Source of the DNA: a virus
Virus record (IMG/VR): IMGVR_UViG_3300034073_002585
Span: 90,193-154,192 of that record
Length of the DNA: 64,000 bases
Direction: 5' to 3' (one strand)
Shown here one piece after another: positions 1,895 to 64,000 of this stretch. The position numbers and the translations under genes were made by a program. Below the pieces are notes generated by a model. It was not told where the DNA came from. It searched no databases and saw nothing but the letters and a program-made list of their open reading frames with translations. Positions within the stretch are counted from its first letter, which is position 1, and each line of letters opens with the position of its first letter.

Positions 1895-1895
1895 A

Positions 1896-30048: not shown

Positions 30049-30070
30049 AACTACTTAATTAGGGAAAATA

Positions 30071-32289: not shown

Positions 32290-32338
32290 TTTTGTAATTT
32301 ACGGTAAGGTTTACGCATAAGCTACTAAATTTGTAGCT

Positions 32339-32677
32339 ATGAGACGTAAAAAGCAAGTATCTGAGCCTGTTTGGCTTACCTGGGAGGGCGAAGATTTTCC
32401 TCGTAAGTTCCATTCTGACTCGGTAGTTTTTTATATTAGTGAACACATTTATTTGGATGAAGATGTTGTTGCCAAAAAGTCGCTGGCACGTCAGATACAA
32501 CTAGAGGGGCTCTCCTACTCCTTGGGAGAATCACTTCGCCTTATAGAAGATTCCTGGGTAACAAAGGCTGGATACTATTTTGAAGATGGCGATGAGGACT
32601 ATCCTGTCTACTGTGAAATAGATGATTTAGATATTGAATGGGATGCCACATTCGTGGAGGTTCCAGTTGTTTGTTAA
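32339..32677 (+). CDS. hypothetical protein
   Basis: 112 aa; TAAATT-7 bp-ATG leaderless start. Confidence 0.6.
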   Translation: MRRKKQVSEPVWLTWEGEDFPRKFHSDSVVFYISEHIYLDEDVVAKKSLARQIQLEGLSYSLGESLRLIEDSWVTKAGYYFEDGDEDYPVYCEIDDLDIEWDATFVEVPVVC

Positions 32678-41763: not shown

Positions 41764-42147
41764 ATGACTACTCAAGCTTTACTGGCAGTAGCCGCAACAA
41801 TCTCTGCGTTTGGCGTATTGATTGCTGCAGTTATAGCAATCTATAAAATTGCAAAAAGAATTGACGATGCCTTAGGTCTAGACAAAGACGGAAGGACTAT
41901 AGCGGAGCGGTTGGACAGGGTTGAGCATCAACTCTGGGAAAATGGCGGAAGCTCCCTTGCTGACCGCGTAAACAATATTGAAAAACATGTTGTTAAGGTC
42001 TCTACCGAAGTCGAGTTCATCAAAGACCTCACTATGGGACTACACGCAGCTCAGACTGGTCAAATAACCAATGTGTATTTCCCCTCAGAAAACGAGCCTT
42101 TAGTTAAACCTGTAGTTAAACAGGTCCGTAAACGCAAAGCTAGTTAG
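41764..42147 (+). CDS. membrane protein (N-terminal TM + coiled coil; holin-associated type)
   Basis: N-terminal hydrophobic helix; L.ENGGSSLADRV motif common in actinophage membrane proteins. Confidence 0.65.
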   Translation: MTTQALLAVAATISAFGVLIAAVIAIYKIAKRIDDALGLDKDGRTIAERLDRVEHQLWENGGSSLADRVNNIEKHVVKVSTEVEFIKDLTMGLHAAQTGQITNVYFPSENEPLVKPVVKQVRKRKAS

Positions 42148-43977
42148 TAAAACTAGCTCCCCAGCCGCCTACGCTTTTTACGTTTACTGTACCCTCTACC
42201 CACGTTCCAGCTTGTCTAACATACGCAGTCCCATTGGCCCATGCCGAACCATTCCACACTTTAACGTATCCACCAGCTGACTCTACCGTGATAGTTAGCG
42301 TGCTTGTATCTAAGGTTTCGTCAGAAGCATTGGTTGCTCTAATTTTAAAATTATATGTGTCTGGGACTGTAGGGGTTCCAGTTAGCTCTCCTGTAGAGGT
42401 ATTTAGTGTTATCCCTGGAGGCAGTGAGCCTTCAATAATGGAATATGTAACAGTAGGGCCCTCTACAACACTTACCCCATCAGAATATGAAGTGTCCTGA
42501 GTTGCCACACTGCTGGCTAACACTGCACTAGACCACACAAGGCTGGCGTCTAATACCTCAATCTCGAACGAGACGCCTCCTGGTGTTTCACTGTCTGCAT
42601 TGTATGGAGTAACGGTAAAGGACGCTGTTCCGTATGCGGTAGGTGTTCCAGACACGGTAGCTTGCGCAAATCCTGAAGTACTAGTAGCACCCGAAAAAGA
42701 GAGGCCAGCTATCGGTAGGTCTCCGTCATTCCATGAGGCAACGTACTGCGCTGATATAGTGTCGCTATAGTAACTACCTTTTCTTGCAGTATTTGTTAGC
42801 GAAGAGTCCAACCAAACTGGAATTCTAGGAGCAACATAAAATGATATGGTCTTAGAGTCGCCCTCTTCGCCCTCAGAATTGACTGGTGTAGCTGTAATAC
42901 TAACTACCCCGCTTGCGGTGGGGGTGCCGTACATCGCTAAAGCATTTTGATTAAAGTCAGGTATTGTCATCCAAGATGGTTGACCACTCACTAGCCAAAC
43001 ATTTACGTTATTAGCACTTATGCCATCACTCCAATAGACGCCAATTCTCCCGCTTGGTAGGGTTTCGTCTGTCCAAGTAGGTAAAGCTTGTTTAAATTCG
43101 AAGGTATCAGTACTGTCTGTACTGCCTCCATCGCCAGTTGCCCTTACGGTTATAGTTTTAGTTCCGCTAGTACCTGCGCTAAATGTTCCTGTTAAAGTTG
43201 CATAGCTTCCGTAGTCGTTTAGGGATATGCCGCTAGGTGCCGTTACTAGAGAATATGAAGTAGTATCTGATGCTTGTATGTAGTCATAGAAACTGTCTCC
43301 AACCCTGTGGATAGTGTAGTCATCCACACCGTTCGAAAAAACTGGAGCTGGGACATTGGCAGTCCAGCTTGCAGTTAGGGTTACGGTTGAGTCTGTTGTA
43401 TATGAAGCACCAGCGCCACCGACATTTGTAGCCCCGTTGAGCCACCCGTTGAACGTATATCCGCTCCTGCTTGGGGTTGGTAGAGTGATGCTGTCCCCGT
43501 GAGCTGATTTAGTCGAAGCTGTACCTACAGTTCCGCCGTTTGCATCAAACGTGATGGTGTAGATGTTTGGGAAGTTAATTCGAGTGTACCCAGAAACAGG
43601 GGCCCTAGTGTTGTTTGGTACGTAGGATGCATCAGTAACGGCGTCTACTATTCCAAATGTATCAAAATACTTTGTACCATCAGCATTGTGACTAGTCACT
43701 CTGTCAGTGACCCTACATATCTCTATCTGGCTATTTTTTGCCAAAGTAAATTGCTGATTTGCACTAGCAACGGATACATCAGAACCACCGCTATTTACAG
43801 TTATGTCACCAGTTAATGTCCAGGATGAGAAGTTATTATTAGTGGAAAAAAGAACAAGCCACATAGTAATGTAAGACCTGTTATTGGCAGCATCGGTATA
43901 CCCGCTATATCCAACGGAAACGCTAAAGCCCCTAGAGTCGTAACTACCTCTAGCTATGCTGCCACTAAAATTTGCCA

Positions 43978-43978
<1 letters not shown>
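42140..43978 (-). CDS. Ig-repeat virion adhesin (InlB B-repeat + putative Ig domains)
   Basis: YTITFDANGG...LPTPSRSGYTFNGW; multiple GTPT/LPPGITL Ig repeats; C-terminal VKVWNGSAW repeats. Confidence 0.75.
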
Positions 43979-45726
<1,748 letters not shown>

Positions 45727-45782
45727 GTTAGAGAATTTCCTGTTAAGGGGTACTACCCTATTTTACCTTAATTTTTAATTTG

Positions 45783-46616
45783 TTACGTGCTTCTATCCCA
45801 TGAGTTAGAGCCAGAGTTGTATATGTGAGCAAACGACCTCACCCACTCGCTTCCGTTATACACATAGACAGGTGATTTTTCCCAGGTTCCTGTGGATGAG
45901 TTGTAGATACTAATATCTCCTCCATCATCCTCTACTGTCATTGTAAGAGTTCCAGTGGTAATAGTGCCGCCATCACCATTTGCACTTACTACAAAGTTGT
46001 AGGTATTTGCGGAGCCTTGAACTGGTGTACCAGAAAGCAGCCCACTCGAACTTAAAGTTACCCCCACAGGGAGAGTTCCAGAGTACAGAGCATATGTAGA
46101 AGCGTTTACAGCCGAGAAGGTAGTCTCGGTTATGGGGCTACCCTCTGTTTCTGTGCTACTACTTAATATGTCTCCACCAGAAGCCCAGTAGGGAGCGGCA
46201 GGAAACCTGGGCGGGAAGAATGGTGGAAAATATGGAGGAAAATACGGCGGGAAGAATGGTGGAAAATATGGAGGAAAATACGGCGGGAAGAATGGTGGAA
46301 AATATGGAGGAAAATACGGTGGGAAGAATGGTGGTGGGCAAGCATCTGTGTATGAACCGCTTGTTTGGCTCTCGTATAAGGTTCCGCTAGTTGCACCAGA
46401 CAGTGTTGCAGAGAAAAAATATAGGGTACCGCATGACAGCGAGCTGGCAGTACCAGAAAACGAGTAGGATTCTCCTGTTGCTACCTGCTGAGACGCCACT
46501 TCAGTCGTTGGCCCGTACAGCCTAACAATTACTGGACCTGCTTGGGTATTTGTGCCAGATACGGTAGCAGTTAGGGAAGTAGTACTGCTGCCAGTAAAAC
46601 TTATGTTTATAGACAT
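45783..46616 (-). CDS. Ig-domain virion protein with a central (PP[YF]F)n-PPRFP repeat
   Basis: CPPPFFPPYFPPYFPPFF...PPRFP between beta-sandwich domains; C-terminal YNSSTGTW/YNGSEW repeats. Confidence 0.8.
   Translation of the reverse strand: MSINISFTGSSTTSLTATVSGTNTQAGPVIVRLYGPTTEVASQQVATGESYSFSGTASSLSCGTLYFFSATLSGATSGTLYESQTSGSYTDACPPPFFPPYFPPYFPPFFPPYFPPYFPPFFPPYFPPYFPPFFPPRFPAAPYWASGGDILSSSTETEGSPITETTFSAVNASTYALYSGTLPVGVTLSSSGLLSGTPVQGSANTYNFVVSANGDGGTITTGTLTMTVEDDGGDISIYNSSTGTWEKSPVYVYNGSEWVRSFAHIYNSGSNSWDRST
46200..46337 (-). repeat. 36-bp tandem repeats encoding PPFF/PPYF
   Basis: Plus-strand unit ggcgggaagaatggtggaaaatatggaggaaaatac x3 plus flanks. Confidence 0.9.
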
Positions 46617-46626
46617 TATCTAAACC

Positions 46627-47721
<1,095 letters not shown>

Positions 47722-47732
47722 AATTTATCCTT

Positions 47733-51585
<3,853 letters not shown>

Positions 51586-51586
<1 letters not shown>

Positions 51587-51960
51587 TATCTGGTTACCTC
51601 AGCTCTCACAATAAACTTCCCTTGAACAATACGAGTAGTTTCGCCTCTAGAAGACTCTACTTCTACGTCATATACGTAAGTTCCTGGCTCGTATGCAGCC
51701 ATATCTGCAGGCGGAATTAGTAGAGTGACTGTCCCTGTAGAGCCGCCAACTGCTAAATACCCATTTTCTGTAGTATATTCAGCAACAACTACAGTGTTGG
51801 GGTCTCTAGTTACCCCGTTAAATGTTCTTACCTGCATACGAGCCACAAAACCTGCAAGGCTAATAGGCGTGCGAGCGGAGTTTTTGACTGTAAAGACCGT
51901 ATTTACAGTCGCGCCTTGGTCCACAACCATATCGTGAACGTTTCCGCGGAGATTTGCCAT
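51586..51960 (-). CDS. fibre anchor/collar-like beta-sandwich protein
   Basis: DQGAT...L.G..ARMQVR...YVYDVEV...TRIVQG.F.V..EVTR; TAATG-coupled to the largest collagen gene. Confidence 0.65.
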
Positions 51961-52063
51961 ACAGGGCGTCCTTACAGGGGGTAGACTAGTCCTTATAATT
52001 TTACCGCAATTTATGCGGATTTATTATTTTAGATAGTAACGGTAGTAGTGTATGATTACATCT

Positions 52064-52633
52064 ATGTCCTATAAACCTTATGGAAATGATGTAGAAATCT
52101 ACATATACGAAGATTTCTTGACTAATTATGAACTAGATTACCTATCTCAGTACATAAAAAACAAATCTGAAGAAGAAGAAGAAAGCTGGCAGGGAGAGCT
52201 CTCTAGCACCAAAGACACTAAGACCTGGGATAGCAGAAATCTTTTTATGGAGAGAAACGAAATATATGACTCCATCTACTCTAGATTTAAAGAGTTCTAT
52301 TCAAAAAATATTTTTCCTATTCCACTGGACTCGGAAGTTTTCAGCGGACTGGGCCCTATAGCTAGAACCCAGGTTGGCCAAGGATTGGCTTTACATGACG
52401 ATATGGGGCCACCAGAGTTACAAATAGACAACCTACATGGCGGCATAATCTACTTAAATGAAGATTTTGAAGGCGGGGAACTGTACTATAAAAATTTTGA
52501 TTATGTTATAAAACCAAAAACTGGAATGTTGGTGGTCCACTCGGCAAAGAGCGAATACACACATGGCGTTAAAGAGGTCTCTTCTGGCACCAGGTATGCA
52601 ATAACTCTTTTTATAAAAAATCCGTCTTCTTAG
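52064..52633 (+). CDS. 2OG-Fe(II) oxygenase (prolyl 4-hydroxylase-like)
   Basis: HDD...IIYLNEDFEGGEL...HGV..V..G.RY. Likely leaderless start at 52064 (ORF track gives 52052). Confidence 0.9.
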   Translation: MSYKPYGNDVEIYIYEDFLTNYELDYLSQYIKNKSEEEEESWQGELSSTKDTKTWDSRNLFMERNEIYDSIYSRFKEFYSKNIFPIPLDSEVFSGLGPIARTQVGQGLALHDDMGPPELQIDNLHGGIIYLNEDFEGGELYYKNFDYVIKPKTGMLVVHSAKSEYTHGVKEVSSGTRYAITLFIKNPSS

Positions 52634-52635
52634 TG

Positions 52636-53235
52636 TTAAAGATTTTTAATCCAAAAAACTGGTGACATATATTTATTTCCTTGAGTAACCTCTAGGGATT
52701 GGTGGTAAAACGGCTTCACTGATGGAAAAATAACAATGCTCCCAGCAAGTGGTTTTATTCTAATTCCCTGTTGTGGAAAATCTAGCTCCCCGCCGACACA
52801 GTCGTCATTGAGGTACATAACCCCAGACATAATAGGTTCTTTTGGTTGATTAGGGTACTCATCAACGTGAGCCCCCATAGAACCACCAACTATGTATTTG
52901 GAAATGCTCAGTGGTGACGGGTCAAAATATGGAAGGTCAAGCTCGCTACAATAGTGTCGTCCAGCAGACTCTAAAGCTCCTCGTAATGTGGTGTATATTT
53001 CCCTAACTTTATCCGAGCTTGTCTGTAATTTACGAGCATCCGTCTGTTTTTGGTATCCGAAGACATAATTTTCGTCATCAGAGGCTGTCCACTTTTTCCA
53101 CTTAAATATTGCGTCATTTTCAGTCAGTAGAGGCTCTAATGACTCTATGTCCTCTACTATTTTTTGCGGGTCGCTAAGAATATTTTTGTAGTAGAAAATT
53201 TGTTCGTGTAGCTTTTCTGGTTGCAAATCACTCAT
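52636..53235 (-). CDS. 2OG-Fe(II) oxygenase (P4H-like)
   Basis: HVD...YLNDDCVGGEL...FPSVKPFYHQS..V..G.KY. Confidence 0.9.
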   Translation of the reverse strand: MSDLQPEKLHEQIFYYKNILSDPQKIVEDIESLEPLLTENDAIFKWKKWTASDDENYVFGYQKQTDARKLQTSSDKVREIYTTLRGALESAGRHYCSELDLPYFDPSPLSISKYIVGGSMGAHVDEYPNQPKEPIMSGVMYLNDDCVGGELDFPQQGIRIKPLAGSIVIFPSVKPFYHQSLEVTQGNKYMSPVFWIKNL

Positions 53236-53244
53236 ATAAATATA

Positions 53245-53889
53245 CTAGTACAGATTTGCTTTCCATGCTGTGCCGATGTGGTACTTTACTCCGCTGGTTA
53301 TTTTAGTTGACTGATGGTAGAAAGGTTTTACGCATGGAAAAATTACTAAGGTTCCAGCATCAGATTTGACTAACACGTCTTGCTCTTTAAAATATAAGTC
53401 GCCACCCTCTTTGTCGCTATTGAGATAGAGGAGGCCCGTTGCGATTGGGGCTAGCTCTGGCTCTCCATCATAGTCAACGTGAGGTCCCATCTCTTGACCG
53501 TTGTCATATTGAAACGTTGCAAAGTCTGTCCAGTTCCTACCATCTTCATAGTCAATCCCTAAGCTTGAGTGGTAGAATTCTCCAACTGCATAAAAAAGGT
53601 CTTTTACCCAGCTATAGTAGTCTTTTACTTCTTGGCTGTTGGTTTTTTCTAAGCTGCCGTTATAGTTTTCAGCTTCCCTCTTTGTTCCGTACACATGTGG
53701 CATATCTATAGAAGATGTCTGCCAAGGGACCAATTTTCTAATTACAGCATCATTTGTTTCTGGCAAGTATTCATCTAAGTTGTGGTGTTTTTCTATCACC
53801 CAGGTACACTCTTCTTCAGAGAGAACTTCACGCATTACCATAATTTTGTCAGCATAAAACTCTGCTTGCTCGAAATTTAAATTAGGCAT
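53245..53889 (-). CDS. 2OG-Fe(II) oxygenase (P4H-like)
   Basis: HVD...YLNSDKEGGDL...FPCVKPFYHQS..I..G.KY. Confidence 0.9.
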   Translation of the reverse strand: MPNLNFEQAEFYADKIMVMREVLSEEECTWVIEKHHNLDEYLPETNDAVIRKLVPWQTSSIDMPHVYGTKREAENYNGSLEKTNSQEVKDYYSWVKDLFYAVGEFYHSSLGIDYEDGRNWTDFATFQYDNGQEMGPHVDYDGEPELAPIATGLLYLNSDKEGGDLYFKEQDVLVKSDAGTLVIFPCVKPFYHQSTKITSGVKYHIGTAWKANLY

Positions 53890-54586
53890 CAGTGTAGCCT
53901 AAGGACCATAAGGCTTTTTGCTCTGTCTGAAGTATGCGTTCAAATGCAATCTGAGCGTTTCTATTTCTTAAATCTTCTTCAGAATACTCTGAATCTGCGT
54001 AATCCCAGAAACCGACTATTGTTATTCTTTCACCAGTTTTAATTTCTTCTACCCTGTGAATGTTTTCTATGCCACCAGGAAAAGTTATTAAACTTCCTTT
54101 AGTTAATTTTATTTGCAAATCATAGTCTCTAAAAATTAATTCGCCGCCCTCGTAATCGTCGTTTAGATACAAAATGCTAGCAAACTTATTATTACCCCAG
54201 GCTGACGGTGTGCCGTCTAAATCGGAATTGTCTGAGTGCCATCTAGCAAAAGAACCAGTTGGCCAAAGCTGAGCATGAGTAGAGTTAGTAACAACTTCCC
54301 TATTAAATGCTGACTCTATTGCAGATTTTATTTCTAACCTAAGCCACTCAAAATAATTTTCGTGTCTTTGCTCTAAACCTGACTTCTCTAAAGCTTCTTG
54401 ACTAATAACTAGTGCCATTCCCCTAGAGCCATAAAAACATGTCTGCATCCAGTTACCATGATTTACCCCCTGGTCTTCGAAAAAATCAATAATCTGATTG
54501 CACTGCTCTTCGTCTAAAAATCCAGGAAATGTTGCTACATCATCCTTAAGCCAAACTGGTTCTTTTATAGTAGTTGTTGTCAGCAT
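53882..54586 (-). CDS. 2OG-Fe(II) oxygenase (P4H-like, HSDN subfamily)
   Basis: HSDNSD...YLNDDYEGGEL...HRV..I..GER. Confidence 0.9.
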   Translation of the reverse strand: MLTTTTIKEPVWLKDDVATFPGFLDEEQCNQIIDFFEDQGVNHGNWMQTCFYGSRGMALVISQEALEKSGLEQRHENYFEWLRLEIKSAIESAFNREVVTNSTHAQLWPTGSFARWHSDNSDLDGTPSAWGNNKFASILYLNDDYEGGELIFRDYDLQIKLTKGSLITFPGGIENIHRVEEIKTGERITIVGFWDYADSEYSEEDLRNRNAQIAFERILQTEQKALWSLGYTDA

Positions 54587-54616
54587 TGTGCTCCTATTGG
54601 TTACTACTATTATAAA

Positions 54617-55405
54617 TTATCTAACTGTTTGGTGAGAACGACGCCACTCTTCTTCTCTTACTTTCTCGAGCTCTGCCCAGGCCTCTTCTCCGTGTTCAGC
54701 TTCACCAGCTAACCATTCTGGGGTGCCTGGGAAAAACTCTAACCAAAAGTTTCTAATAAAGTATCTATCACCTTTTCTTAGTCTCTTTACTCCATGGTAG
54801 AAAGGCTCTACTGAGGGAAAAATTAGAATATCTCCAGCAGTAGGCTTATAGTCAAACTTTATGTCATTCGAGTCATCTTCTCTATTGTCTCTGAGAAGAA
54901 ACGCTAACTCTCCGCCCTCATAGTCATCATTTAAATACATTGTGCATGTTATTTTGAACTTATAGCCCCTAGCCTCTGCTCTTTCTGGGACCCAGTCGGT
55001 GTGGTAGTGCATAGACATTTCATCAGTTACCCCACCCTCTTCCCTATATACACAAACCGAAGGGTTTTGGTGCATCCAGGTATCTTGCTCTATGCCCAAC
55101 TCCTCGACATACATTTTTGTCGCTGCATAGAAATATTCTTCAATCTCTCTAGAAATGTCTGGAAATCGGGTTCTTTGAGATACCTCGTCAGATAGAAATG
55201 TTTCCCATTCCTTGTCGTCAGGAAACTTATTCCAAACTTTATCTACGCCACCTAGAGCGTCTGTAATGTGGCCAAATACCCACCACTTATTCCAGTCTGG
55301 TAGGGCCTTTAATTTTTCTAGCAACACTTCTGGATTTAGTATTCCACCTCTAAACACCCATACTTGAGGGTGAAGCTTTTCTAGGGTTCCTTTTAAGTGG
55401 TCCAT
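54617..55405 (-). CDS. 2OG-Fe(II) oxygenase (P4H-like)
   Basis: HTD...YLNDDYEGGEL...FPSVEPFYHGV...GDRY. Confidence 0.9.
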   Translation of the reverse strand: MDHLKGTLEKLHPQVWVFRGGILNPEVLLEKLKALPDWNKWWVFGHITDALGGVDKVWNKFPDDKEWETFLSDEVSQRTRFPDISREIEEYFYAATKMYVEELGIEQDTWMHQNPSVCVYREEGGVTDEMSMHYHTDWVPERAEARGYKFKITCTMYLNDDYEGGELAFLLRDNREDDSNDIKFDYKPTAGDILIFPSVEPFYHGVKRLRKGDRYFIRNFWLEFFPGTPEWLAGEAEHGEEAWAELEKVREEEWRRSHQTVR

Positions 55406-56160
55406 TACGTGTCCTTATTTCCGCTTGCCCAGCGTTCCCGCTGCTCTGCCTGCTCTTGTTCAACTCGAAGTTTCTCTTGAGCCCATTCTTCTTTTCTCTC
55501 ATCTGAATACTCGGCGTCTGCAAAGTCCCAAAACGAGACCATAGTGTACCTTTCTCCTCTGGTAACTTCACTTACTCCATGAATATTTTCGTGACCACCT
55601 GGGAAAACGTATAGTGACAAGTAGTTAGGCCTAAAGTCTATCTCATGTTCTGGAAAATATAGATGACCGCCATCATAGTCATCGCTCAAATATAAGATAC
55701 CTACATATTTGTTAATTTCGAATGATGATGGGTTCCCATCCATGTCGGAGTTATCTGAGTGGGGCATGGCAAAGGCTCCAGTTGGCCATTTTTGCCCGTG
55801 AGATGTGTTGGGTCTAACTTCACGACCAAACACTAGCTCCACTGCTTTTTTAAAAGATTCCCTTAAATCGCTAAATACCCCTAAATAAAGGCCAACTTCT
55901 TCTAGATTTTTATCGTCGTCTGGGAGCCTAAGACCTTTAGAGCTATAAAATGCAGAATAACCCCATACATCCTCAGGGGTAATTTCAAAGTACTTAACAA
56001 TACTTTTTGCAGTAGAGTCATCAATAAAGTTTGGTATTTCTACAATTTTATTTTCTAAAACGCCTAGTTTGCTGCCTTCTAGTGGCTCATCTTTGTAGTA
56101 AAAATAGGTGGAATCGTCGTAGTTCCCGAAGGCTAGGCCCACTTGTTTCCCCTCTCCCAC
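55405..56160 (-). CDS. 2OG-Fe(II) oxygenase (P4H-like, HSDN subfamily)
   Basis: HSDNSD...YLSDDYDGGHL...HGV..V..GERY. Confidence 0.9.
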   Translation of the reverse strand: MGEGKQVGLAFGNYDDSTYFYYKDEPLEGSKLGVLENKIVEIPNFIDDSTAKSIVKYFEITPEDVWGYSAFYSSKGLRLPDDDKNLEEVGLYLGVFSDLRESFKKAVELVFGREVRPNTSHGQKWPTGAFAMPHSDNSDMDGNPSSFEINKYVGILYLSDDYDGGHLYFPEHEIDFRPNYLSLYVFPGGHENIHGVSEVTRGERYTMVSFWDFADAEYSDERKEEWAQEKLRVEQEQAEQRERWASGNKDT

Positions 56161-56873
56161 TCCTGTTTCGCTAAAGCCTTAGAAAGTTCTACAATTTCTT
56201 TCTCCATAGCCCATTCTTTTTGTCGTTCTTCAGAGTAGGTTGCATCTGCGAAGTCCCAGAATGAAACCATAGTGTATCTTTCTCCTGAAAGGATTTCTGA
56301 TACTCCATGGATATTCTCTATTCCACCAGGGAAAGTTATAAAAGAACCTGCTTTCGGGGATATCCTGAGTTTTTCAGTGTGGACGTCTTCCGTTTCGACG
56401 AAGTATAGGTCACCACCTTCGTAATTATCGTTTAGGTATAAAATCCCTACATACTTATTAATCTCGAAAGACGTCGGGGTACCTTTAAAGTCAGAATTAT
56501 CTGAGTGAGGCGAGGCAAACCCTCCTGGCAACCACTTCTGCGAGTGTGCTGAGTTGGCCTTAACTGCCCTTTTAAATACAGACTCTACGCCTTTTTGAAA
56601 ATTGCCTTTTAACTCGTCAAAAAATCCTCTAGGCAGTCCGACCTCTTCTACAAGTGGGCTATTGTGGTCTATCCCCATGCCGCGGGAGCCGTAAAAAGCA
56701 ATATCTCCCCATAATTCAGCCTGAGCCTCTAAAAACTCGATAACTTTTGAACTGTTTTCGGGGGATATAAAGTTAGGAATCTCTACAATTCTATTTCTTG
56801 TGATTCCAATCTGGCTGACTGTAGTCTCTTCATCCAGATGCACAATAAAATTTGATTCATCAAAAAGTGTCAT
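56133..56873 (-). CDS. 2OG-Fe(II) oxygenase (P4H-like, HSDN subfamily)
   Basis: HSDNSD...YLNDNYEGGDL...HGV..I..GERY. Confidence 0.9.
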   Translation of the reverse strand: MTLFDESNFIVHLDEETTVSQIGITRNRIVEIPNFISPENSSKVIEFLEAQAELWGDIAFYGSRGMGIDHNSPLVEEVGLPRGFFDELKGNFQKGVESVFKRAVKANSAHSQKWLPGGFASPHSDNSDFKGTPTSFEINKYVGILYLNDNYEGGDLYFVETEDVHTEKLRISPKAGSFITFPGGIENIHGVSEILSGERYTMVSFWDFADATYSEERQKEWAMEKEIVELSKALAKQEWERGNKWA

Positions 56874-56884
56874 TTAAGTCTCTC

Positions 56885-57559
56885 CTACTTAAGGGCCTGC
56901 TCTTTAATTCCCTGTTCCCATTGCTGGTGCTGTTGTTCGTGAATTTTTGCAGTTTGTTCTAACTCTTTTTGCTTCTGTTCCCAGTACTCGTCTGGGTAGG
57001 TAGAATCTGCGTAATCAAATGACGCTAACATTGTCCATCTTTGTCCTGATGTTACTTCAGTAACCCCATGGATATTTTCGTACCCTACGTCAAATACTAC
57101 TACCGTGCCAGCTTCAGGAGCTATGTCGATATTGTGGTCCCTAAACACTAAATTACCACCCTCATAGTCATCGTTGAGGTAGATGATGGTGACTAGCTTA
57201 TTTTCTCTCCATGCGTTAGGGGTCCCATCTAGCTCCGTGTTGTCGGAGTGAAAAGCAGCAAAAGCCCCTGGCAACCATTTGTGGGCACTCAGGGTTAGAT
57301 TTTTTAGCTTTCTATCGAAAACACTTTCAGCTAATTCTTGAAATTTTTGCCTAAGATTTCTCATATAGGTTTCATCAATAGTGCTTGCTGGATTTGCCTG
57401 CCAGGGGGCAATAGGGTCCATAACTCTAGCGTTATAGAAACAGGTAAGCTGCCATGCCTCAGAGTTGCTTTCATAGTAATCTATTAAAGCCTGAGATTCT
57501 TCTCTTGACAGGAACTCTTTTACTTCTATTACATCGTGCTTATGAATTATTTTTTGCAA
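56885..57559 (-). CDS. 2OG-Fe(II) oxygenase (P4H-like, HSDN subfamily)
   Basis: HSDNTE...YLNDDYEGGNL...HGV..V..GQR. Confidence 0.9.
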   Translation of the reverse strand: MQKIIHKHDVIEVKEFLSREESQALIDYYESNSEAWQLTCFYNARVMDPIAPWQANPASTIDETYMRNLRQKFQELAESVFDRKLKNLTLSAHKWLPGAFAAFHSDNTELDGTPNAWRENKLVTIIYLNDDYEGGNLVFRDHNIDIAPEAGTVVVFDVGYENIHGVTEVTSGQRWTMLASFDYADSTYPDEYWEQKQKELEQTAKIHEQQHQQWEQGIKEQALK

Positions 57560-58193
57560 GATTATCCCTAACCAATAGTGTATTTATATTATACCTGTCG
57601 CAGCCTGTTATCTTTTCTACAGCGTGCACGTAAGTAGAAGGGAAAAGGACTATATCACCAGGGTTAGGACTATGAGAATAAAACTTTGTGCTCTCGTCAA
57701 AGTCTTCGTAGAAGTTAATGGAACCTCCGCCGAATCCAGAGTTTAGGTATACGTTTAGAGTTATGAGATATTCTCTAGAGCCGTCTCCGCCTGAGTCTGT
57801 GTGCAGTCCAGCGCTATCAGAAAAGTCGTGTCTATAGTGTCTAAGACCGTAGTTATCTATATAGCTGTCTTCAGGATATTTTAAATCGTATACTTCAGAG
57901 TAAACCTCATAGGCCGCATTTATGTAATCACTCAAGAACAGTAAGTCATGAAAAAAGGTATCGTCCTCTTCTTTTATAAAGTGCTCTGAGTAGGGGGTTC
58001 TCCTTAGAGAACTTGTGTAGCCAATTTTTCCCCATGGGTCAGTACTTATTACTGAGTACCTGTCTCCCGTAGGGCATGATTTAAAGTTGGACAAAATCCT
58101 TTCAACGTCTGGTATAGCACGTTCAATTAGAATAATATTTGGTGCTACTTCTTTAGCAGACTCTTTTAAGATAACTTTAAGGTTTTCGCTCAC
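57540..58193 (-). CDS. 2OG-Fe(II) oxygenase (P4H-like)
   Basis: HTD...YLNSGFGGGSI...FPS.Y.HAV..I...DRY. Confidence 0.85.
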   Translation of the reverse strand: MSENLKVILKESAKEVAPNIILIERAIPDVERILSNFKSCPTGDRYSVISTDPWGKIGYTSSLRRTPYSEHFIKEEDDTFFHDLLFLSDYINAAYEVYSEVYDLKYPEDSYIDNYGLRHYRHDFSDSAGLHTDSGGDGSREYLITLNVYLNSGFGGGSINFYEDFDESTKFYSHSPNPGDIVLFPSTYVHAVEKITGCDRYNINTLLVRDNLAKNNS

Positions 58194-58854
58194 CTTTATG
58201 CTCCACTATTGTCCAGAAAAACGGGCACACATATCTAATTCCAGATTTAATTGGGGTTACCCCGTGGATATAATTCATATCACCTGGGAAAAAGTATGCA
58301 GCTCCAGCTTTTGGTTTAAATTGAATTCCTTGGTGTGGGAAATAGAGTTCTCCACCCTCATAGTCATCATTTATATAAAAGAGGCCAGCGATGTCGTAGT
58401 ACGGGAAGTCATTAGGCTTACCTCTATTTTCACCCTCATGAAGTTCTTTATCTGCGTGTGGCATCTGAAGTTGTCCAGGTAGCCACCTAACTATTGCGGG
58501 GCTTGTGGCTCTAGCATCTACCTCAAAAAAATCATCTACTTTTTCCTTCAGACGCTTTTGCATATTTATAATTGTTTCAGTTATTAGAGGATTAACTTTA
58601 TCTAAAGTCTGAGCAGTTGCTACCCTGTGGTCCCAGTAGCTCGAATCGTAAATCACTACCCCGTCTTCATCATAATGAGTCTCGGTTATATCCCATGTAG
58701 TGTTATTTCTTGCAAAATCATTGAGTAGGGTAAGCTCTTCCTCGGTCATAAAGTCTTCTAGAGCGATTATGTTGTCCGCAGAGCGACCAAAAAAACCAGA
58801 AGGAGTTATAGAAAGTCTCTCATCATTGTGTTGATTTACTGTAGTGGAATCCAT
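58177..58854 (-). CDS. 2OG-Fe(II) oxygenase (P4H-like)
   Basis: HADKE...YINDDYEGGELYF...HGV..I..G.RY. Confidence 0.9.
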   Translation of the reverse strand: MDSTTVNQHNDERLSITPSGFFGRSADNIIALEDFMTEEELTLLNDFARNNTTWDITETHYDEDGVVIYDSSYWDHRVATAQTLDKVNPLITETIINMQKRLKEKVDDFFEVDARATSPAIVRWLPGQLQMPHADKELHEGENRGKPNDFPYYDIAGLFYINDDYEGGELYFPHQGIQFKPKAGAAYFFPGDMNYIHGVTPIKSGIRYVCPFFWTIVEHKGERKP

Positions 58855-58869
58855 AATTAATATCTTACC

Positions 58870-59610
58870 TTACTCATATTTTCGTCTTTCCCAAACTTCT
58901 TTTTGGTAGACTCCGCCATCTGGGACTCTGTATTTATCACTGTTTTGTTGGTTTTTTGTCACCATATCTTCGTGGGTAATTTTTATTACCACTTCTGATT
59001 CCCAGTGTTCTCGCTTGAAAGGAAGTATTTGCGCGTACGGTGTTCCCGCTGGGAGCACTCCAGTAAAACCTTCTGCAACAAAAAATGGCATTGTTCCTGG
59101 GAGATGTACTTTGTCGTTGTCAATAATTCCACTAGTTGTCAGAAATGGAAGCTCGAATCGATTGAACGGCTGGGTGTAGAGAGCACTATATCCCTCTGGT
59201 AGCTCTACTGCCCAGTCGGCCCACCACGCGAAATGCTTTTGGTGATATCCCATTGGGGCAACAAATTGAGCCATGGGGGGTCTATCTTGCAAAAAGTCTT
59301 TGTTTAAGTTATCTAAAACTTTTGCTTGTATCTGACCGTTCTGGTCTAAGTAAAACTCAATATCAGCTGGAGTCCTATAGACATAGCCTGTGCCCATAAT
59401 GTCAAAAACCGCTGGGCATGCTTTCCATGTTGGAATTTTTCCACTACCGTCTGGCATTTCCCATGGCTTGCCAGTCATGGGATTCATCGCAAACCTGTCT
59501 GCTTTTCTATACCAATCTGGGATTGTTTTTATTGTGGGTTTTGGTAGAGAAGCAGAGTCTTCATTTAGCCATGGTCTATTTATTGAAAACTTAATCTTCT
59601 GAGTGTCCAC
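58870..59610 (-). CDS. DUF6065-like protein (dUTPase-like fold, inferred)
   Basis: IPDWYRK, TWKACP..FD.M..GY, LPEGYS.L.TQP.NR..LPF.T..GIID.D, PAGTP.AQ.LPFKRE.W. Confidence 0.65.
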   Translation of the reverse strand: MDTQKIKFSINRPWLNEDSASLPKPTIKTIPDWYRKADRFAMNPMTGKPWEMPDGSGKIPTWKACPAVFDIMGTGYVYRTPADIEFYLDQNGQIQAKVLDNLNKDFLQDRPPMAQFVAPMGYHQKHFAWWADWAVELPEGYSALYTQPFNRFELPFLTTSGIIDNDKVHLPGTMPFFVAEGFTGVLPAGTPYAQILPFKREHWESEVVIKITHEDMVTKNQQNSDKYRVPDGGVYQKEVWERRKYE

Positions 59611-60358
59611 TTTCAGACCCTTCCTCTACTTCATAGGTCTGCCCAGTGAATGGACACGTAACGGTTTTAAGCTTTATGGATTTTGTCTCGTGGGTTCCTG
59701 CAGAAGTTCCATCCCAATTTAAAGCATCTCTGTACATTTTTGACCAATCTCCCGTCGCGTTCTTTTCCTGAGCAACATCGCCATATGTTTTTACGTCTTT
59801 CCAGTACTCTTCTGTAGGAAATTCTTCTAATAGTTGCATCTCGTAGTTGTCTTCCAAAGCCTTTAGTGAAATAGGGAGAACTGCTGCTATAGGAGTTCCT
59901 GCTGGTATGACTATTTCTTTGTTTGCTTCAGTAATTTTCCAAGCTACTGGAAGTTCTGGTTTATAAAAAGACGTACTAATTAGTGTAGTAAAACACTGTG
60001 TACCAGCTATGAACTGGTTTGGAACAGGCATAATCAAAGTTGTTGTATCAGGTTCAGTCCTAAAAATCAGACCAGTCATGAAACTAATAGTTGCATTTCC
60101 TCTACTGGGATTTGCCCATTCTTGGCCCTCCAGTATTGTTACATGCTCTGTGGTTGTATCGTCTATACCATCCCATATAAATCTGATATCTCCAGGGAAC
60201 GATATGCCCCAACCAAGTCTATTTGTTAGCGCCATGGGAAAGCACATGTAGGCGTGCTTGTTTTCGCTATTGTCCATCCACTCTCTAGTGGCAGACAGCT
60301 GCTCTATGTTTCCTGCATTAGGCCTATTTTTCTGTACAGTGATAATGCTTTTCTGCAT
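59591..60358 (-). CDS. DUF6065-like protein
   Basis: REWMD....HAYMCFPM...N..GW.I..P....F.WDG, PVPN, PAGTPIAA.LP. Confidence 0.7.
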   Translation of the reverse strand: MQKSIITVQKNRPNAGNIEQLSATREWMDNSENKHAYMCFPMALTNRLGWGISFPGDIRFIWDGIDDTTTEHVTILEGQEWANPSRGNATISFMTGLIFRTEPDTTTLIMPVPNQFIAGTQCFTTLISTSFYKPELPVAWKITEANKEIVIPAGTPIAAVLPISLKALEDNYEMQLLEEFPTEEYWKDVKTYGDVAQEKNATGDWSKMYRDALNWDGTSAGTHETKSIKLKTVTCPFTGQTYEVEEGSESGHSED

Positions 60359-61107
60359 TAATTACCCGTTTCCTCCAGGAATACTCCTCCATGGAATTTG
60401 TCCGAGTAGTCGAGCATTGTAACCATCGAGTATTTAGTCCCTGACTTAACTGGCATAGCGCGGTGCGGATACATAAAATTAGATGGGAAAATAAAAACGT
60501 CTCCAGCTCTTGCCTTGGCAGTCAAATTTTGAAGCCTAAAGTTTAGCTCGCCACCCTCATAGTCGTCATTAGGATATGCAACTAGGGATACAACACAGTT
60601 GTACGAATATCCGTGGTCATGGTGTTCTTGGAAGTGCTGCCCTGGGCCATACTTAACGTAGTTAGTTGCTTCCCAGTAGCGGAGTTCGCCAATGTGGTAA
60701 CGTCTGGTGTAATCTTTTACAACTTGCTTCTGCCTGTGTATTGTCTCTTCAGCTAGGCTTCTTAGCTTGTCGCCCCAAACGCTAGTGTCGTCATCAAAAT
60801 CATGCAACTTATATTTAAAATCCCAGCAGTCACGGTACTCTGGAATTTTCATAGAGTACCCAACCATAGCTTCTTGATACTCGTAGTCATTTTCTGGAGA
60901 GGAAAGAACTTCTTCAATTCTCTCTATAATCTTCATTTCTTTGGGTAGAACATCATGATATACCCATATCCCGCTACCAGGCTTAACTTCTTCTGCAGAG
61001 CTCCAAGTAACTTCGTCTAATTTGTACCATTCAGTTAGACGGTTATTCATTCTTTCTTGTTCTTCTGCGCCCTCTTTGGCTAGTTTTTCTTTTACTGTGT
61101 CTGACAT
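60358..61107 (-). CDS. 2OG-Fe(II) oxygenase (P4H-like)
   Basis: HHDHG...YPNDDYEGGEL...FPSNFMYPHRA..V..GTKYS. Likely leaderless start at 61107 (ORF track gives 61116). Confidence 0.9.
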   Translation of the reverse strand: MSDTVKEKLAKEGAEEQERMNNRLTEWYKLDEVTWSSAEEVKPGSGIWVYHDVLPKEMKIIERIEEVLSSPENDYEYQEAMVGYSMKIPEYRDCWDFKYKLHDFDDDTSVWGDKLRSLAEETIHRQKQVVKDYTRRYHIGELRYWEATNYVKYGPGQHFQEHHDHGYSYNCVVSLVAYPNDDYEGGELNFRLQNLTAKARAGDVFIFPSNFMYPHRAMPVKSGTKYSMVTMLDYSDKFHGGVFLEETGN

Positions 61108-61123
61108 ATTATTCATAATACCT

Positions 61124-61861
61124 TTAGTAAGTTAGTTTATACTCTGTAACCGTCTGGGATACTTTATTGTTTACACCGTCTCTGTCATTATAGTCGCTCA
61201 TTATTACTACAGAGTACTTAGTACCCTCAATCATTTCTTCTGAAGCGTGTTCATATATGTATGTTGAAGGAAAAACTACAATATCTCCAGCAGATGGTTT
61301 AAGTTTTAGATTGTCTAACCTAGGAAACCACAATTCTCCACCTACATAATTGTCGTTTAAATATACAACTATCGAAACTGTAGAGACATACGTAGGCCCG
61401 TGGTCAGCATGAATCCTAAAGTGCGTGCCTGCGCCCTCATACTTAACAAAATTAAATGCTTCGTAGGCTCTAATACCCACGCCCCAATAGGAGCCATAGT
61501 CATCGACGCACATACGAACTTTTTGAAAGATTTCTTCATGCATTTGATATAGTTTTTGATTCTCTGAAGTTTTAGGCCCTAAGCCTACCGAGTTGAACTT
61601 AAAGTCTTTAGCGTTTCTAGACTCTAGGTCAACCTCATCTGAGGTTGTAACATATGCTCCTCGCCAAGAGTATTGAGTTTGACCATTTAAGTGTGACTCT
61701 AAGGTGTCTACATATGTCTGACACTGAGACTCTGATAGTGCTTTTCTGTACACATTTACCCCCAGCGCTGGGTTAAGTACAGAAATATGGCCTATGGTTC
61801 TGTCTTTAGCCCTGTTACTAGCCGTCTCCGACCTGTCTTTAGTAAACCAATCATCGCTCAT
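61124..61861 (-). CDS. 2OG-Fe(II) oxygenase (P4H-like)
   Basis: HADHG...YLNDNYVGGEL...FPSTYIYEHAS..M..GTKYS. Confidence 0.9.
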   Translation of the reverse strand: MSDDWFTKDRSETASNRAKDRTIGHISVLNPALGVNVYRKALSESQCQTYVDTLESHLNGQTQYSWRGAYVTTSDEVDLESRNAKDFKFNSVGLGPKTSENQKLYQMHEEIFQKVRMCVDDYGSYWGVGIRAYEAFNFVKYEGAGTHFRIHADHGPTYVSTVSIVVYLNDNYVGGELWFPRLDNLKLKPSAGDIVVFPSTYIYEHASEEMIEGTKYSVVIMSDYNDRDGVNNKVSQTVTEYKLTY

Positions 61862-61879
61862 GAGAAAAGTCTACACCAA

Positions 61880-62887
61880 TTAGGTAGTTATGGGGGGCAT
61901 ATGCCTGAACTCTTGTCCGTGTCTATGAGCATTTAGCTTATGGTAATTTTCATCATATTCGCACCACTGCGGGTTTAGACCATACTTTTTGCAATACTCT
62001 AAAATTTTTTCTTTTGGTATGTTTCCGTATACTCCCTTTAAATTTCCCGACAAGAGCATGTTTAATTTTTTCATAGACTCGTCCGACTGGTCCCAGAAGG
62101 CGTCTTTATTTAAATCTGCCCACGGTCTGTGGGACACAGTTCTTGGCAACTCCTCGCCTGGATACTCTTTGTATGTGTCATGGTAGTAAAGAATCTTAGG
62201 GGTAGCATAAAATCGCCAGCCCCTTGCCCACGACTGTAGCGTTAAATATATTTCTTCGCCGTGGTAGTTCATGTCTGGGTCAATGGGTACTTCTTCTACA
62301 TACTTACTAGTGGAAAAAACCCAGCTACCCTGCCAATAGCAATCCTCTAAAACATCATCTGTATCTGGAACTGGCTCTACTTTAGGGAATCCATATCCAG
62401 GGATATAGTCAGAGTTTATCCTGGGTCTATAAAAATTTTTCAATCTTCCAGCTCGTGAATTATACGTTATATTGCCACTCTCATCAAACTCATACTCTGG
62501 GCCAGATACGGTTATGATTGCTTTTTCAGAGTGTTTACTGGCTTTTTCATATTCTTGTAAAACTATCTCATCCCAGTTTGGGGCAAATATATTGTGCCCA
62601 CACGTATATAAGATGTAGTCATATGTTGGAGAGACCTGTGTAGTTTTGTTTCTAGACCAGAGAACCCCTCTATATGTAGACAGGTTGTATTTTCTATATA
62701 TTATTTTGTCTTTAGATACAAAGTCTCTCAGGTTTGCGTGTAAGTCTTCAGATTCTTGTTCTGATACTACAGAAAAACTTATTCTGTGGGGGTATTTGGC
62801 CTTCTTCAAACAATCTTGTACAGATTCGTATAAATTTTTTTCTCTATATGCCACCATAGAGACTAATATTTTTTTATTGCTACTCAT
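61880..62887 (-). CDS. Gnt1/GT60-like (Skp1-hydroxyproline GlcNAc-transferase-like) glycosyltransferase
   Basis: ILVSMVAYRE...AKYP..I...V..Q, G..WSR, H..F..NWD, DP...YHGEEI....SW..GW..Y.....YH match the Gnt1-type pattern (IFVSIASYRD, DSH.RF..WD, GEE). Confidence 0.75.
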   Translation of the reverse strand: MSSNKKILVSMVAYREKNLYESVQDCLKKAKYPHRISFSVVSEQESEDLHANLRDFVSKDKIIYRKYNLSTYRGVLWSRNKTTQVSPTYDYILYTCGHNIFAPNWDEIVLQEYEKASKHSEKAIITVSGPEYEFDESGNITYNSRAGRLKNFYRPRINSDYIPGYGFPKVEPVPDTDDVLEDCYWQGSWVFSTSKYVEEVPIDPDMNYHGEEIYLTLQSWARGWRFYATPKILYYHDTYKEYPGEELPRTVSHRPWADLNKDAFWDQSDESMKKLNMLLSGNLKGVYGNIPKEKILEYCKKYGLNPQWCEYDENYHKLNAHRHGQEFRHMPPITT

Positions 62888-63668
62888 TGCTTGAGATTAT
62901 TTCATCTAAAAGAGTTTTCGGGGCTACCCAGCATTGAATACACTCTTCCCCATTAATTATGCAAGGGTAGTTATTTTCTGGTAAATCGTTAAAATATGGA
63001 GGATGACCAGAGTGTTCGTAATATCTAATGTCTCCGTCATGTCTATATTTTTGAATTAGCTCGTTAAATAAATCTTCTTGCTTCGGGTCCTGTAAATCTA
63101 AATCATAACCCCAGTGGGTTTCATCTACAAAAAGACCGAATAATAGAATTATGTATGCATCTTTGTTGTCTACAGGATACGGTGGTCTACTGTGAGTTTG
63201 TTGTTGACCCATAAAGAAAATTCCACTATTCTCTGCTTCATCAAACTGAGTGCCGTCAACAATTACGCCCCAGCTGTCAAAACCAGAAATTTCTACGCAA
63301 AAATCTAGGGTGTATTGGCACACGCTCTGGTCCATATGCTCCCACAGATAAGGAGTAACCCCGTTGTGTTGTTGGTATCTAGCTGACCAGAGTACTTTTA
63401 ATCTAAGATTTTCATTGCCCCAGTGCTTTTTTGCGGTTGCTAATACTTTGTCCCGAATTTCTTGAGAAAAGTTTGGTTCGGAAACCCAGCGGCCAACGAT
63501 TGTGTGGTAAGGAGTAGCCGAGCCTGGTCCCCAGTCGGAGTCTCTGGCTATGGTATTTTTAATCTCTTCTAGCGTTTCCTTATCAAAAAGATTAGCTACT
63601 TTAAATGCCTCTATACCTTCTGGAAGTGGCCACTTAATGTTTTTACTGGAATCGGCATTTATCGGCAT
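62880..63668 (-). CDS. divergent 2OG-Fe(II) oxygenase-like protein
   Basis: ARYQ...P.LWEHMD..C.YTLD...W.....G......F.GQ...HSR. HxD...H triad present. Confidence 0.65.
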   Translation of the reverse strand: MPINADSSKNIKWPLPEGIEAFKVANLFDKETLEEIKNTIARDSDWGPGSATPYHTIVGRWVSEPNFSQEIRDKVLATAKKHWGNENLRLKVLWSARYQQHNGVTPYLWEHMDQSVCQYTLDFCVEISGFDSWGVIVDGTQFDEAENSGIFFMGQQQTHSRPPYPVDNKDAYIILLFGLFVDETHWGYDLDLQDPKQEDLFNELIQKYRHDGDIRYYEHSGHPPYFNDLPENNYPCIINGEECIQCWVAPKTLLDEIISSNE

Positions 63669-63674
63669 ATAGCC

Positions 63675-63680
63675 ATTATA
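63675..63680 (-). promoter_or_regulatory. -10 box of a leaderless promoter for the oxygenase/GT operon
   Basis: Minus strand TATAAT-6 bp-ATG(63668). Confidence 0.65.
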
Positions 63681-63682
63681 GT

Positions 63683-63711
63683 AAAGAAAAAGCCCCCGCA
63701 GTGCGGAGGCT
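63683..63711 (-). terminator. rho-independent terminator after the PPYF-repeat gene
   Basis: Minus strand agcctccgca-c-tgcgggggct followed by TTTTCTTT. Confidence 0.75.
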
Positions 63712-63729
63712 AATTCTTTACCCTAACTC

Positions 63730-64000
63730 TTACTTATCTTCCTCAGGGGTATCAAAATCTTCTACAGAGAAGATAGAGAACCTAGGTGGGAAGTATGGTG
63801 GGAAGTAAGGTGGGAAGTATGGGAACCTAGGTGGGAAGTAAGGTGGGAAGTAAGGTGGGAAGTATGGGAACCTAGGTGGGAAGTAAGGTGGGAAGTAAGG
63901 TGGGAAGTAAGGTGGGAAGTAAGGTGGGAAGTAAGGTGGGAAGTAAGGTGGGAAGTAAGGTGGGAAGTAAGGTGGGAAGTAAGGTGGGAAGTAAGGTGGG
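63730..64000 (-). CDS. 5'-truncated (FPPY)n/FPPRF proline-aromatic repeat protein (not in the ORF track)
   Basis: Minus-strand translation ...(PPYF)10 PPRFPYFPPYFPPYFPPRFPYFPPYFPPYFPPRFSIFSVEDFDTPEEDK*, stop at 63730-63732, followed by a terminator. Confidence 0.8.
   Translation of the reverse strand, partial: PPYFPPYFPPYFPPYFPPYFPPYFPPYFPPYFPPYFPPYFPPRFPYFPPYFPPYFPPRFPYFPPYFPPYFPPRFSIFSVEDFDTPEEDK
63881..64000. repeat. ten perfect 12-bp tandem repeats (aagtaaggtggg) running to the window edge
   Basis: Counted directly; degenerate copies continue back to ~63780. Confidence 0.95.

Follow-up and report, generated by a model that had tools for sequence, protein, structure and literature searches.

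The 64,000-nucleotide stretch analysed here (the window) is the last 64 kb of G000, the complete IMG/VR record IMGVR_UViG_3300034073_002585 (154,192 bp) of a phage with a siphovirus-type genome. At its end, a gene for a protein with an (FPPY)n tail lies upstream of 12 kb given over largely to genes for 2-oxoglutarate-Fe(II) (2OG-Fe(II)) oxygenases. We read this region as a larger version of a viral gene module that is conserved and comprises, in order, a tail-fibre-type gene, a small repeat protein, two core oxygenase subfamilies and a DUF6065 protein. The repeat protein joins an FN3, Ig or ~60-amino-acid (aa) domain to a C-terminus of 4 to 22 F-P-P-[F/Y/W] units. The module is real, conserved, essentially viral and so far uncultured. 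We lean towards the view that its core oxygenases hydroxylate proline in the repeat tail. More generally, conserved synteny and the class of the enzymes make it somewhat probable that a substrate is encoded here beside the enzymes that modify it.

Repeat proteins with an F-P-P-aromatic tail

The original prediction, made from the sequence of the window alone, had placed an (FPPY)n gene with FPPRF units immediately upstream of the array, and that gene is present. A 12-bp tandem repeat of 18.6 copies runs past the end of the window, where the record ends as well. When the two record ends are collapsed over their overlap, a single open reading frame (ORF) of 314 aa results, with an fn3 match (E 2e-9), a second FN3-like stretch, ~21 repeat units, and then a short acidic end and a stop codon; the true number of units is uncertain. 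The record carries a 124-nt exact direct terminal repeat (DTR; window 63877-64000 and G000:C1:1-124) that lies wholly within the tandem repeat. Because the terminal repeat consists only of coding tandem repeat, the assembly probably broke inside it, and both the record's label of 'complete, DTR' and the number of units should therefore be read with care. Joining the ends is nevertheless credible, since orthologues of 298 and 304 aa with matching architecture occur in two related loci, L220 and L119. The FPPY frame is also real, because it continues from the FN3 part and because relatives encode the peptide with varied codons. One of these is the genome G001, whose varied codons for an FPPY-type peptide indicate selection at the protein level.

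A second repeat protein of the window, with an Ig domain and 36-bp repeat units, sits amid collagen-like fibre genes. In 174 complete repeat proteins the unit is F-P-P-x, with x being Phe in 1226 units, Tyr in 937 and Trp in 66. There are 4-22 units per protein (median 14.5), and 149 of the 174 proteins end in ...FK. The N-terminal part is variable, consisting of one to several FN3 domains, of the ~60-aa domain or of some other small domain. Upstream of the repeat gene there is always, in G000 too, a long gene of fibre type whose product has a conserved C-terminal domain. The carriers are FN3/Ig proteins of 277-314 aa in the window and 63-725 aa long elsewhere. They are thus fibre-locus proteins and not short precursor peptides, so the likeness to ribosomally synthesised and post-translationally modified peptides that had been suggested for the region does not hold; no peptidase turned up in scans of the array, and a recognition element was not specifically searched for.

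It had also been suggested that Tyr might be modified, which is unlikely to be central given the composition of the units. The orthologue of repeat protein 1 in L220, a 148-kb relative (L220:8257-9150), has a Phe-only tail of F-P-P-F and F-P-F units and ends in an acidic peptide similar to that of repeat protein 1. Tyr is therefore not essential, and we set aside Tyr-directed chemistry (dihydroxyphenylalanine (DOPA) or dityrosine) as the main point, since Phe freely replaces Tyr.

At nine loci, the ...FK end is followed directly by a Peptidase_S74 domain (PF13884) that begins at profile position 1 (E about 1e-11); this domain is not present in the two repeat proteins of the window. Peptidase_S74 serves endosialidases and tail fibres as an intramolecular chaperone: once the trimeric shaft has been folded, the domain is released by self-cleavage at its first serine. 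Such a cleavage would yield exactly the ...FK end of the other 149 proteins. The position of the domain directly after ...FK leads us to read the repeat as a shaft, and suggests that the tail is that of a trimeric fibre. No collagen triple helix is possible, as F-P-P-[F/Y/W] units contain no Gly.

Many small repeat genes also carry a conserved putative +1 frameshift site, which would be a separate recoding signal. Among the small repeat genes with the ~60-aa domain, all 75 reach a stop codon only ~22-27 residues into the ATG frame, while the repeat lies in the +1 frame, where a start codon is absent. The heptamer G[CG]N-CGG-A is always found at the junction, in the form GCA-CGG-A in 43 genes. 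The pattern suggests conserved, programmed +1 frameshifting of ribosomes at the CGG codon, similar in form to the Ty3 site. Examples, which lie outside the window, are L047:2750-2830, L018:2975-3050 and a minus-strand gene in L003.

The oxygenase array

Twelve oxygenases resembling prolyl 4-hydroxylase (P4H) had been predicted, all on the strand of the repeat gene. The number stands, with 12 ORFs above the Pfam PF13640 cut-off (E 2e-7 to 4e-13; 32-51 bits against a cut-off of 27), and so does the enzyme type, but only eleven are on the minus strand (52636-61861), the remaining one being on the plus strand. The H-x-D...H triad is intact in every paralogue, H117, D119 and H177 being invariant in the alignment, and all 12 have a basic R/K after the distal His, at G-x-[RK]-Y, the residue for the 2OG carboxylate. 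Pairwise identities of 16-41% mark the twelve as old paralogues.

A profile built from the 12 paralogues matched, among solved structures, prolyl 3-hydroxylase 1 (P3H1) best (4e-15), followed by Bacillus anthracis P4H (1e-13), PiuC-type hydroxylases (6e-11 to 1e-9), an algal P4H (2e-8), the lysyl hydroxylase LH3 (5e-8), the chlorovirus P4H (2e-7) and PHD2 (about 5e-6). AlkB was not among the matches of this Protein Data Bank (PDB) search, and Tet-like structures came last, with E>0.005 only. These matches place the array enzymes in the clade of protein prolyl and lysyl hydroxylases, and the best of their solved relatives modify fibrous, Pro-rich proteins.

On the minus strand, the genes from 63668 to 52636 are contiguous and without gaps. 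They encode, in order, a 262-aa protein, a PF11397 glycosyltransferase, two PF13640 oxygenases, a DUF6065 pair and nine more PF13640 oxygenases. The eight oxygenases of 52636-58193 are a lineage-specific expansion. There are 18 PF13640-type oxygenases in the whole genome, of which six lie outside the window (G000:C1:18561-22505, 28356-34232, 54291-54893 and 81286-82269). A megablast search of the 12 kb against GenBank phages gave no match, PADLOC reported only a generic 2OG domain model, and all NCBIfam matches were far under cut-off. A predicted complex of a core oxygenase (alignment A5) and the C-terminal 50 residues of the tail scored 0.02 in a run without controls, which counts neither way.

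Co-occurrence of repeat, oxygenases and DUF6065

Co-occurrence of the repeat with oxygenases and DUF6065 had been proposed beforehand as a test, and it was found whichever of the three was used to select loci. A degenerate DNA pattern of 3.7 repeat units retrieved at least 119 IMG/VR contigs. Using the 12-paralogue profile at E<1e-10 to call oxygenases, 95 of the 119 loci listed had a related oxygenase, with 278 such genes in 967 kb, and 53 had DUF6065. The median gap between oxygenase and repeat ORF was 370 bp, and 31 of 66 measured gaps were no longer than 100 bp. A second set, fetched with the DUF6065 alignment alone so as to avoid selection on the repeat, comprised 80 of 442 IMG/VR loci. 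Every one of these had oxygenases (1-9 each), and 65 had the repeat (62 with at least four units, three with shorter stretches); the remaining 15 were fragments of 4-12 kb. Over all 191 loci, 167 had oxygenases.

Gene order is also conserved. In 120 of 121 cases, the repeat gene has its nearest oxygenase on the downstream side; 89 of these 121 nearest oxygenases are members of the 58177-58854 subfamily, and the next commonest subfamilies are those of 60358-61116 and 61124-61861. Three complete genomes, G000, G001 (174 kb) and G004 (160 kb), have 18, 12 and 7 oxygenases and 2, 1 and 1 repeat genes, respectively. Each of these repeat genes adjoins an oxygenase array, and in G001 and G004 lies directly upstream of it. 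The capsid gene of the window was found in neither G001 nor G004. The T4 capsid family was also sought in five large records that carry the module, but the controls went unmatched along with the rest, so the outcome carries no weight.

These counts overstate the number of independent events, since many of the loci recur as near-identical copies in different samples. Independence is nonetheless indicated by the unrelated N-terminal domains of the repeat proteins, the different genome backbones and the range of DUF6065 identities (50-76%). In 185,579 prokaryote genomes the repeat pattern matched no more than seven stretches, of which two or three are real; those have oxygenases and DUF6065 adjoining. 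This tight co-occurrence in viral contigs supports the idea of a substrate gene accompanied by tailoring enzymes.

The vicinity of the module is a broader island of redox enzymes. Glutathione peroxidase (PF00255) is found near it in 101 of 191 loci, and PhyH dioxygenases, an AurF-like di-iron oxygenase and 2OG-FeII_Oxy_5 proteins also occur (examples are L200:6815-7432, L146:5122-5868, L145:12290-13399 and L083:10434-11045).

DUF6065 proteins

Two DUF6065-like proteins had been predicted. The first is a clear DUF6065 protein, whereas the second is a distant relative linked to it solely by a PHROG match that both have, phrog_7084. Four of the seven invariant residues in the DUF6065 alignment are Trp, and the alignment contains no metal triad. 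A moderately confident model of the first protein (pLDDT 74) resembles several dUTPases (VIA Z 9.0-10.0, rmsd 2.7-3.1 over 114-122 residues), and Foldseek matches it to a dUTPase-like barrel (E 3e-4); no dUTPase Pfam match was obtained. Typical DUF6065 had no tblastn match in 50,697 GenBank phage records. Our guess is that DUF6065 is a binding partner of the Pro-rich tail, the alternative being a nucleotide ligand.

The divergent oxygenase and the glycosyltransferase

The 262-aa protein at the head of the array has no Pfam or PHROG match, and its assignment as a divergent, thirteenth oxygenase is borne out by its fold. The AlphaFold2 (AF2) model (pLDDT 94.5) is a 2OG-oxygenase barrel whose Foldseek matches are 2OG oxygenases, headed by the chlorovirus prolyl hydroxylase (5c5t, E 8e-8) and including a bacterial P4H that hydroxylates EF-Tu. 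H111-x-D113...H159 is kept in 24 homologues, and R161 is likewise invariant in the family. Two metagenome proteins of 440-458 aa (P0059 and P0060) have relatives of this oxygenase fused to a PF13640 domain in a single polypeptide, and two shorter relatives are encoded elsewhere in G000, in the regions outside the window that hold the six further PF13640-type oxygenases.

The adjoining gene had been described as a Gnt1/GT60-like transferase. It does belong to PF11397, but at the position where five other PF11397-like proteins, three of them from elsewhere in G000, have D-x-H, the window transferase has C-G-H. We take D-x-H to be the metal/nucleotide-sugar motif that defines GT60 and PF11397; the substitution leads us to call the enzyme GT60-like only. 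C86, G87 and H88 are conserved across 19 aligned orthologues, and we therefore reject the idea of a decayed gene. A tblastn search of GenBank phages with the transferase matched two Xanthomonas jumbo phages only, at 22% identity. The three further PF11397-like transferases of the genome, all with D-x-H, lie in the same regions outside the window as the six further oxygenases.

The transferase had been counted as part of the enzyme cluster, yet PF11397 genes occur in just 2 of 191 loci and not in the close relative L119. In the wider protein collection, homologues of the transferase and of the divergent oxygenase recur on common contigs, and the order in L220 is fibre, repeat protein, divergent oxygenase, transferase, oxygenases, DUF6065 pair, oxygenases. 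The pair is thus a lineage add-on to the core module. Glycosylation lies outside the conserved module and is a weaker part of our reading, because the transferase is lineage-specific and has an atypical motif.

What the oxygenases may modify

We suggest that, during late gene expression, the core oxygenases would hydroxylate prolines of the repeat tail. The tail itself would form a fibrous shaft, probably a trimer, with a high polyproline-II content, which hydroxylation would stabilise or solubilise, as in collagen. DUF6065 may be a non-catalytic or accessory partner, possibly one that grips the Pro-rich tail. In this lineage, the array would have grown to 13 paralogues, and the added pair of divergent oxygenase and glycosyltransferase may attach a sugar to a hydroxylated residue; the adjacent collagen-like fibres may be the target of some of the extra paralogues. 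A more specific proposal, that F-P-P-[F/Y/W] forms a new glycine-free trimeric aromatic polyproline shaft whose folding or stability depends on phage prolyl hydroxylases, DUF6065 being the partner that binds the tail, is tentative, and we consider it rather doubtful.

Several points weigh against hydroxylation of the tail. Co-location within a late, fibre-linked island could be explained by shared regulation or mobility, and the redox genes nearby fit a general auxiliary 'oxygenase island' equally well. No oxygenase was found in 24 of the 119 repeat-selected loci listed, most of which are short or end near the repeat. The marine cyanophages S-B64 and S-T4 have oxygenase clusters and no F-P-P-aromatic repeat; phage 2OG oxygenases must therefore have other substrates too, and the link we describe concerns the DUF6065-bearing module and not all phage oxygenases. 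Thirteen paralogues as deeply diverged as these (16-41%) seem to exceed the apparent need of one four-residue repeat. Lastly, the dUTPase-like fold modelled for DUF6065 (pLDDT 74) might indicate a nucleotide ligand.

One alternative is that the collagen-like fibres of 42140-51586 are hydroxylated, instead of or besides the tails, by the oxygenases as a whole or at least by the nine lineage-specific extra ones. Four collagen-like genes lie directly downstream on the same strand, and L119 and L220, which have this fibre architecture, also have large arrays. P3H1, the best profile relative, acts on Pro at the X position of G-X-Y, and Pro in the phage proteins is almost solely at that position, with 28-76 G-P-x triplets in each. 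X-Pro-Gly, the canonical target of collagen P4H, is found only 0-1 times per protein, however, and collagen-like repeats occur in 1 of the 80 DUF6065-selected loci and 17 of 191 overall, against 80 of 80 and 167 of 191 for oxygenases. Arrays of 8-9 oxygenases are found in loci without collagen. Since collagen-like repeats are absent from nearly all oxygenase loci, they are not the general substrate, and we regard this alternative as unlikely; for the nine extra paralogues here, the fibres are still candidate substrates.

It is less probable still that the array is an auxiliary-metabolic or host-takeover island, serving 2OG consumption, nucleic acid repair or modification of host proteins, with the repeat protein an unrelated fibre component at its border. 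Cyanomyoviruses have multi-copy 2OG-Fe(II) oxygenases, up to five, for which 2OG drawdown or DNA repair has been proposed and for which there is no known substrate (PMC3037559). The closest cultured-phage relatives of the window paralogues are cyanophage genes, at 25-38% identity. The glutathione peroxidase, PhyH and AurF-like genes of related loci and the EF-Tu-modifying P4H among the fold matches of the divergent oxygenase would also fit such an island. A chance border, on the other hand, would not be kept with the same repeat and the same gene order where capsid genes differ from genome to genome; by its profile, the array resembles protein hydroxylases and not AlkB, and it stands within the fibre gene block, on a shared strand.

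Hypermodification of DNA bases, in which TET/JBP-like hydroxylation would be followed by glycosylation with the involvement of a dUTPase-fold protein, we consider very improbable: two paralogues do match Tet_JBP weakly (E 7e-4 and 6e-3), the fold of DUF6065 is dUTPase-like and a glycosyltransferase is present, but these Tet_JBP matches reach 19 and 16 bits against a 34.9-bit cut-off where PF13640 passes in all 12, Tet-like structures rank last in the profile search, DUF6065 lacks a dUTPase Pfam match and most loci have no glycosyltransferase.

Comparison with known systems

Hydroxylation of the repeat tail would have its nearest viral counterpart in the chlorovirus PBCV-1, which also combines a P4H-type oxygenase (vCPH, 5c5t) with short Pro-rich tandem repeats of its own. 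The 1999 characterisation of that enzyme reportedly named the virus's own Pro-rich repeat proteins as candidate substrates. A virus-encoded prolyl hydroxylase acting on the virus's own Pro-rich structural repeats is, in this sense, already known. PBCV-1 differs in being a eukaryotic virus with one enzyme, PAPK-type repeats and no dedicated cluster known, whereas here a bacteriophage has 2-13 paralogues in fixed synteny with the candidate substrate gene, the repeat is of the F-P-P-aromatic type, and DUF6065 is present. The new elements are the repeat with its partner protein, the fixed module, an array of this size and the occurrence in a phage.

The closest solved relatives, B. anthracis P4H (3itq, 5hv0), P3H1 and LH3, act on fibrous, trimeric, Pro-rich proteins, as we propose here, but their substrates have Gly at each third residue and F-P-P-[F/Y/W] has none. 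Peptidase_S74 fibres, such as the endosialidase and the T5 L-shaped fibre, are comparable in that this domain directly follows the tail in nine related loci; the known shafts, in contrast, are triple beta-helices or coiled coils, and the repeat proteins of the window lack the domain. Plant extensins, other hydroxyproline-rich glycoproteins and mussel foot proteins have Pro/aromatic-rich repeats that are hydroxylated and then glycosylated or cross-linked. They depend on Ser-Pro runs and on the chemistry of Tyr or DOPA, unlike the present repeat, in which Tyr and Phe are interchangeable and glycosylation is not conserved.

The Skp1 pathway of Dictyostelium and Toxoplasma (PhyA and Gnt1, GT60) resembles the adjoining prolyl-hydroxylase-fold enzyme and PF11397 protein of 62880-63668 and 61880-62887, but the phage transferase has C-G-H and not D-x-H, and the pair is an add-on in a single lineage, outside the core module. 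Cyanomyoviruses (Syn9, S-B64 and others) share tandem PF13640-type oxygenases, which are the nearest cultured-phage homologues, and S-B64 has four in tandem. They differ in having 1-5 copies and, in S-B64 and S-T4, no repeat; DUF6065 was not found in GenBank phages.

Few unexplained genes of aquatic phages are commoner than tandem 2OG-Fe(II) oxygenases, and the proposals made since 2007-2010 have not assigned them a substrate. In the full-text searchable literature we found no paper on the repeat strings or DUF6065 and no description of phage prolyl hydroxylation of a virion protein. If our reading is true, the module would be the first bacteriophage protein prolyl hydroxylation system, with a glycine-free, hydroxylase-dependent fibre motif. 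DUF6065 would gain a context and a fold. Should the more specific proposal of a new trimeric shaft hold, the module would also be a bacteriophage counterpart of the collagen/P4H system, and a substrate would for the first time be assigned to the 2OG-Fe(II) oxygenases that abound in aquatic phages. Because a subset of these oxygenases stands in fixed order beside one simple, easily synthesised candidate substrate, the relation between oxygenase and substrate is directly testable.

Layout of the region and neighbouring genes

The features of the region are collected in Table 1. For the major capsid protein of the phage, identity is 70% with its counterpart in the metagenome-assembled Actinomycetia phage DSL-LC01, and ~55% with the proteins of large Microbacterium phages.

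Table 1. Repeat proteins, array genes and fibre genes of the window (positions are those of the window unless prefixed).
Position	Strand	Feature	Basis or remark
63730-64000	-	Repeat protein 1, C-terminal part: (FPPY)n, three FPPRF units, 15-residue acidic end	Tandem repeat, translation
G000:C1:1-798	-	Repeat protein 1, N-terminal FN3-FN3 part	Joined ORF
62880-63668	-	Divergent 2OG-Fe(II) oxygenase (13th), 262 aa	AF2 fold, conserved HxD...H
61880-62887	-	PF11397 (GlcNAc, GT60-like) glycosyltransferase	Pfam E 1e-23; 84.8 bits against cut-off 21
61124-61861	-	PF13640 oxygenase, third commonest subfamily in related loci	Pfam, alignment
60358-61116	-	PF13640 oxygenase, core subfamily 2 (197 members, 191 loci)	Pfam, alignment
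59591-60358	-	DUF6065 (PF19541) protein	Pfam E 8e-28; 98 bits against cut-off 26.6
58870-59610	-	Distant second DUF6065-like protein	phrog_7084 only; no Pfam match
58177-58854	-	PF13640 oxygenase, core subfamily 1 (259 members)	Pfam, alignment
57540-58193, 56885-57559, 56133-56873, 55405-56160	-	PF13640 oxygenases, first four of the eight in 52636-58193	Pfam
54617-55405, 53882-54586, 53245-53889, 52636-53235	-	PF13640 oxygenases, other four of the eight in 52636-58193	Pfam
52052-52633	+	PF13640 oxygenase, opposite strand	Pfam
51586-51960	-	Small conserved protein phrog_1084	Bounds the array and begins the fibre genes; equivalent position in L220
42140-51586	-	Fibre cluster	Four collagen-like proteins and repeat protein 2
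43978-45726, 46627-47721, 47733-49082, 49082-51586	-	Collagen-like fibre proteins	G-X-Y repeats
45783-46616	-	Repeat protein 2: He_PIG Ig domain and (FPP[FY])n, 36-bp units	Pfam, tandem repeat

The collagen-like fibre proteins (49082-51586 and its neighbours) are very rich in Thr, with 46-129 Thr each, and contain G-P-T triplets. In the Bacillus exosporium protein BclA, G-P-T repeats are glycosylated, and by analogy the Thr-rich fibres are a possible alternative acceptor for the transferases.

A second cluster of transferases and oxygenases lies at ~18.5-22.5 kb of G000, with no F-P-P-aromatic repeat nearby. At the other end of the window from the array, a 1553-aa ORF (1845-6506) has portal-like and head-maturation-protease-like PHROG matches over residues 787-1236.

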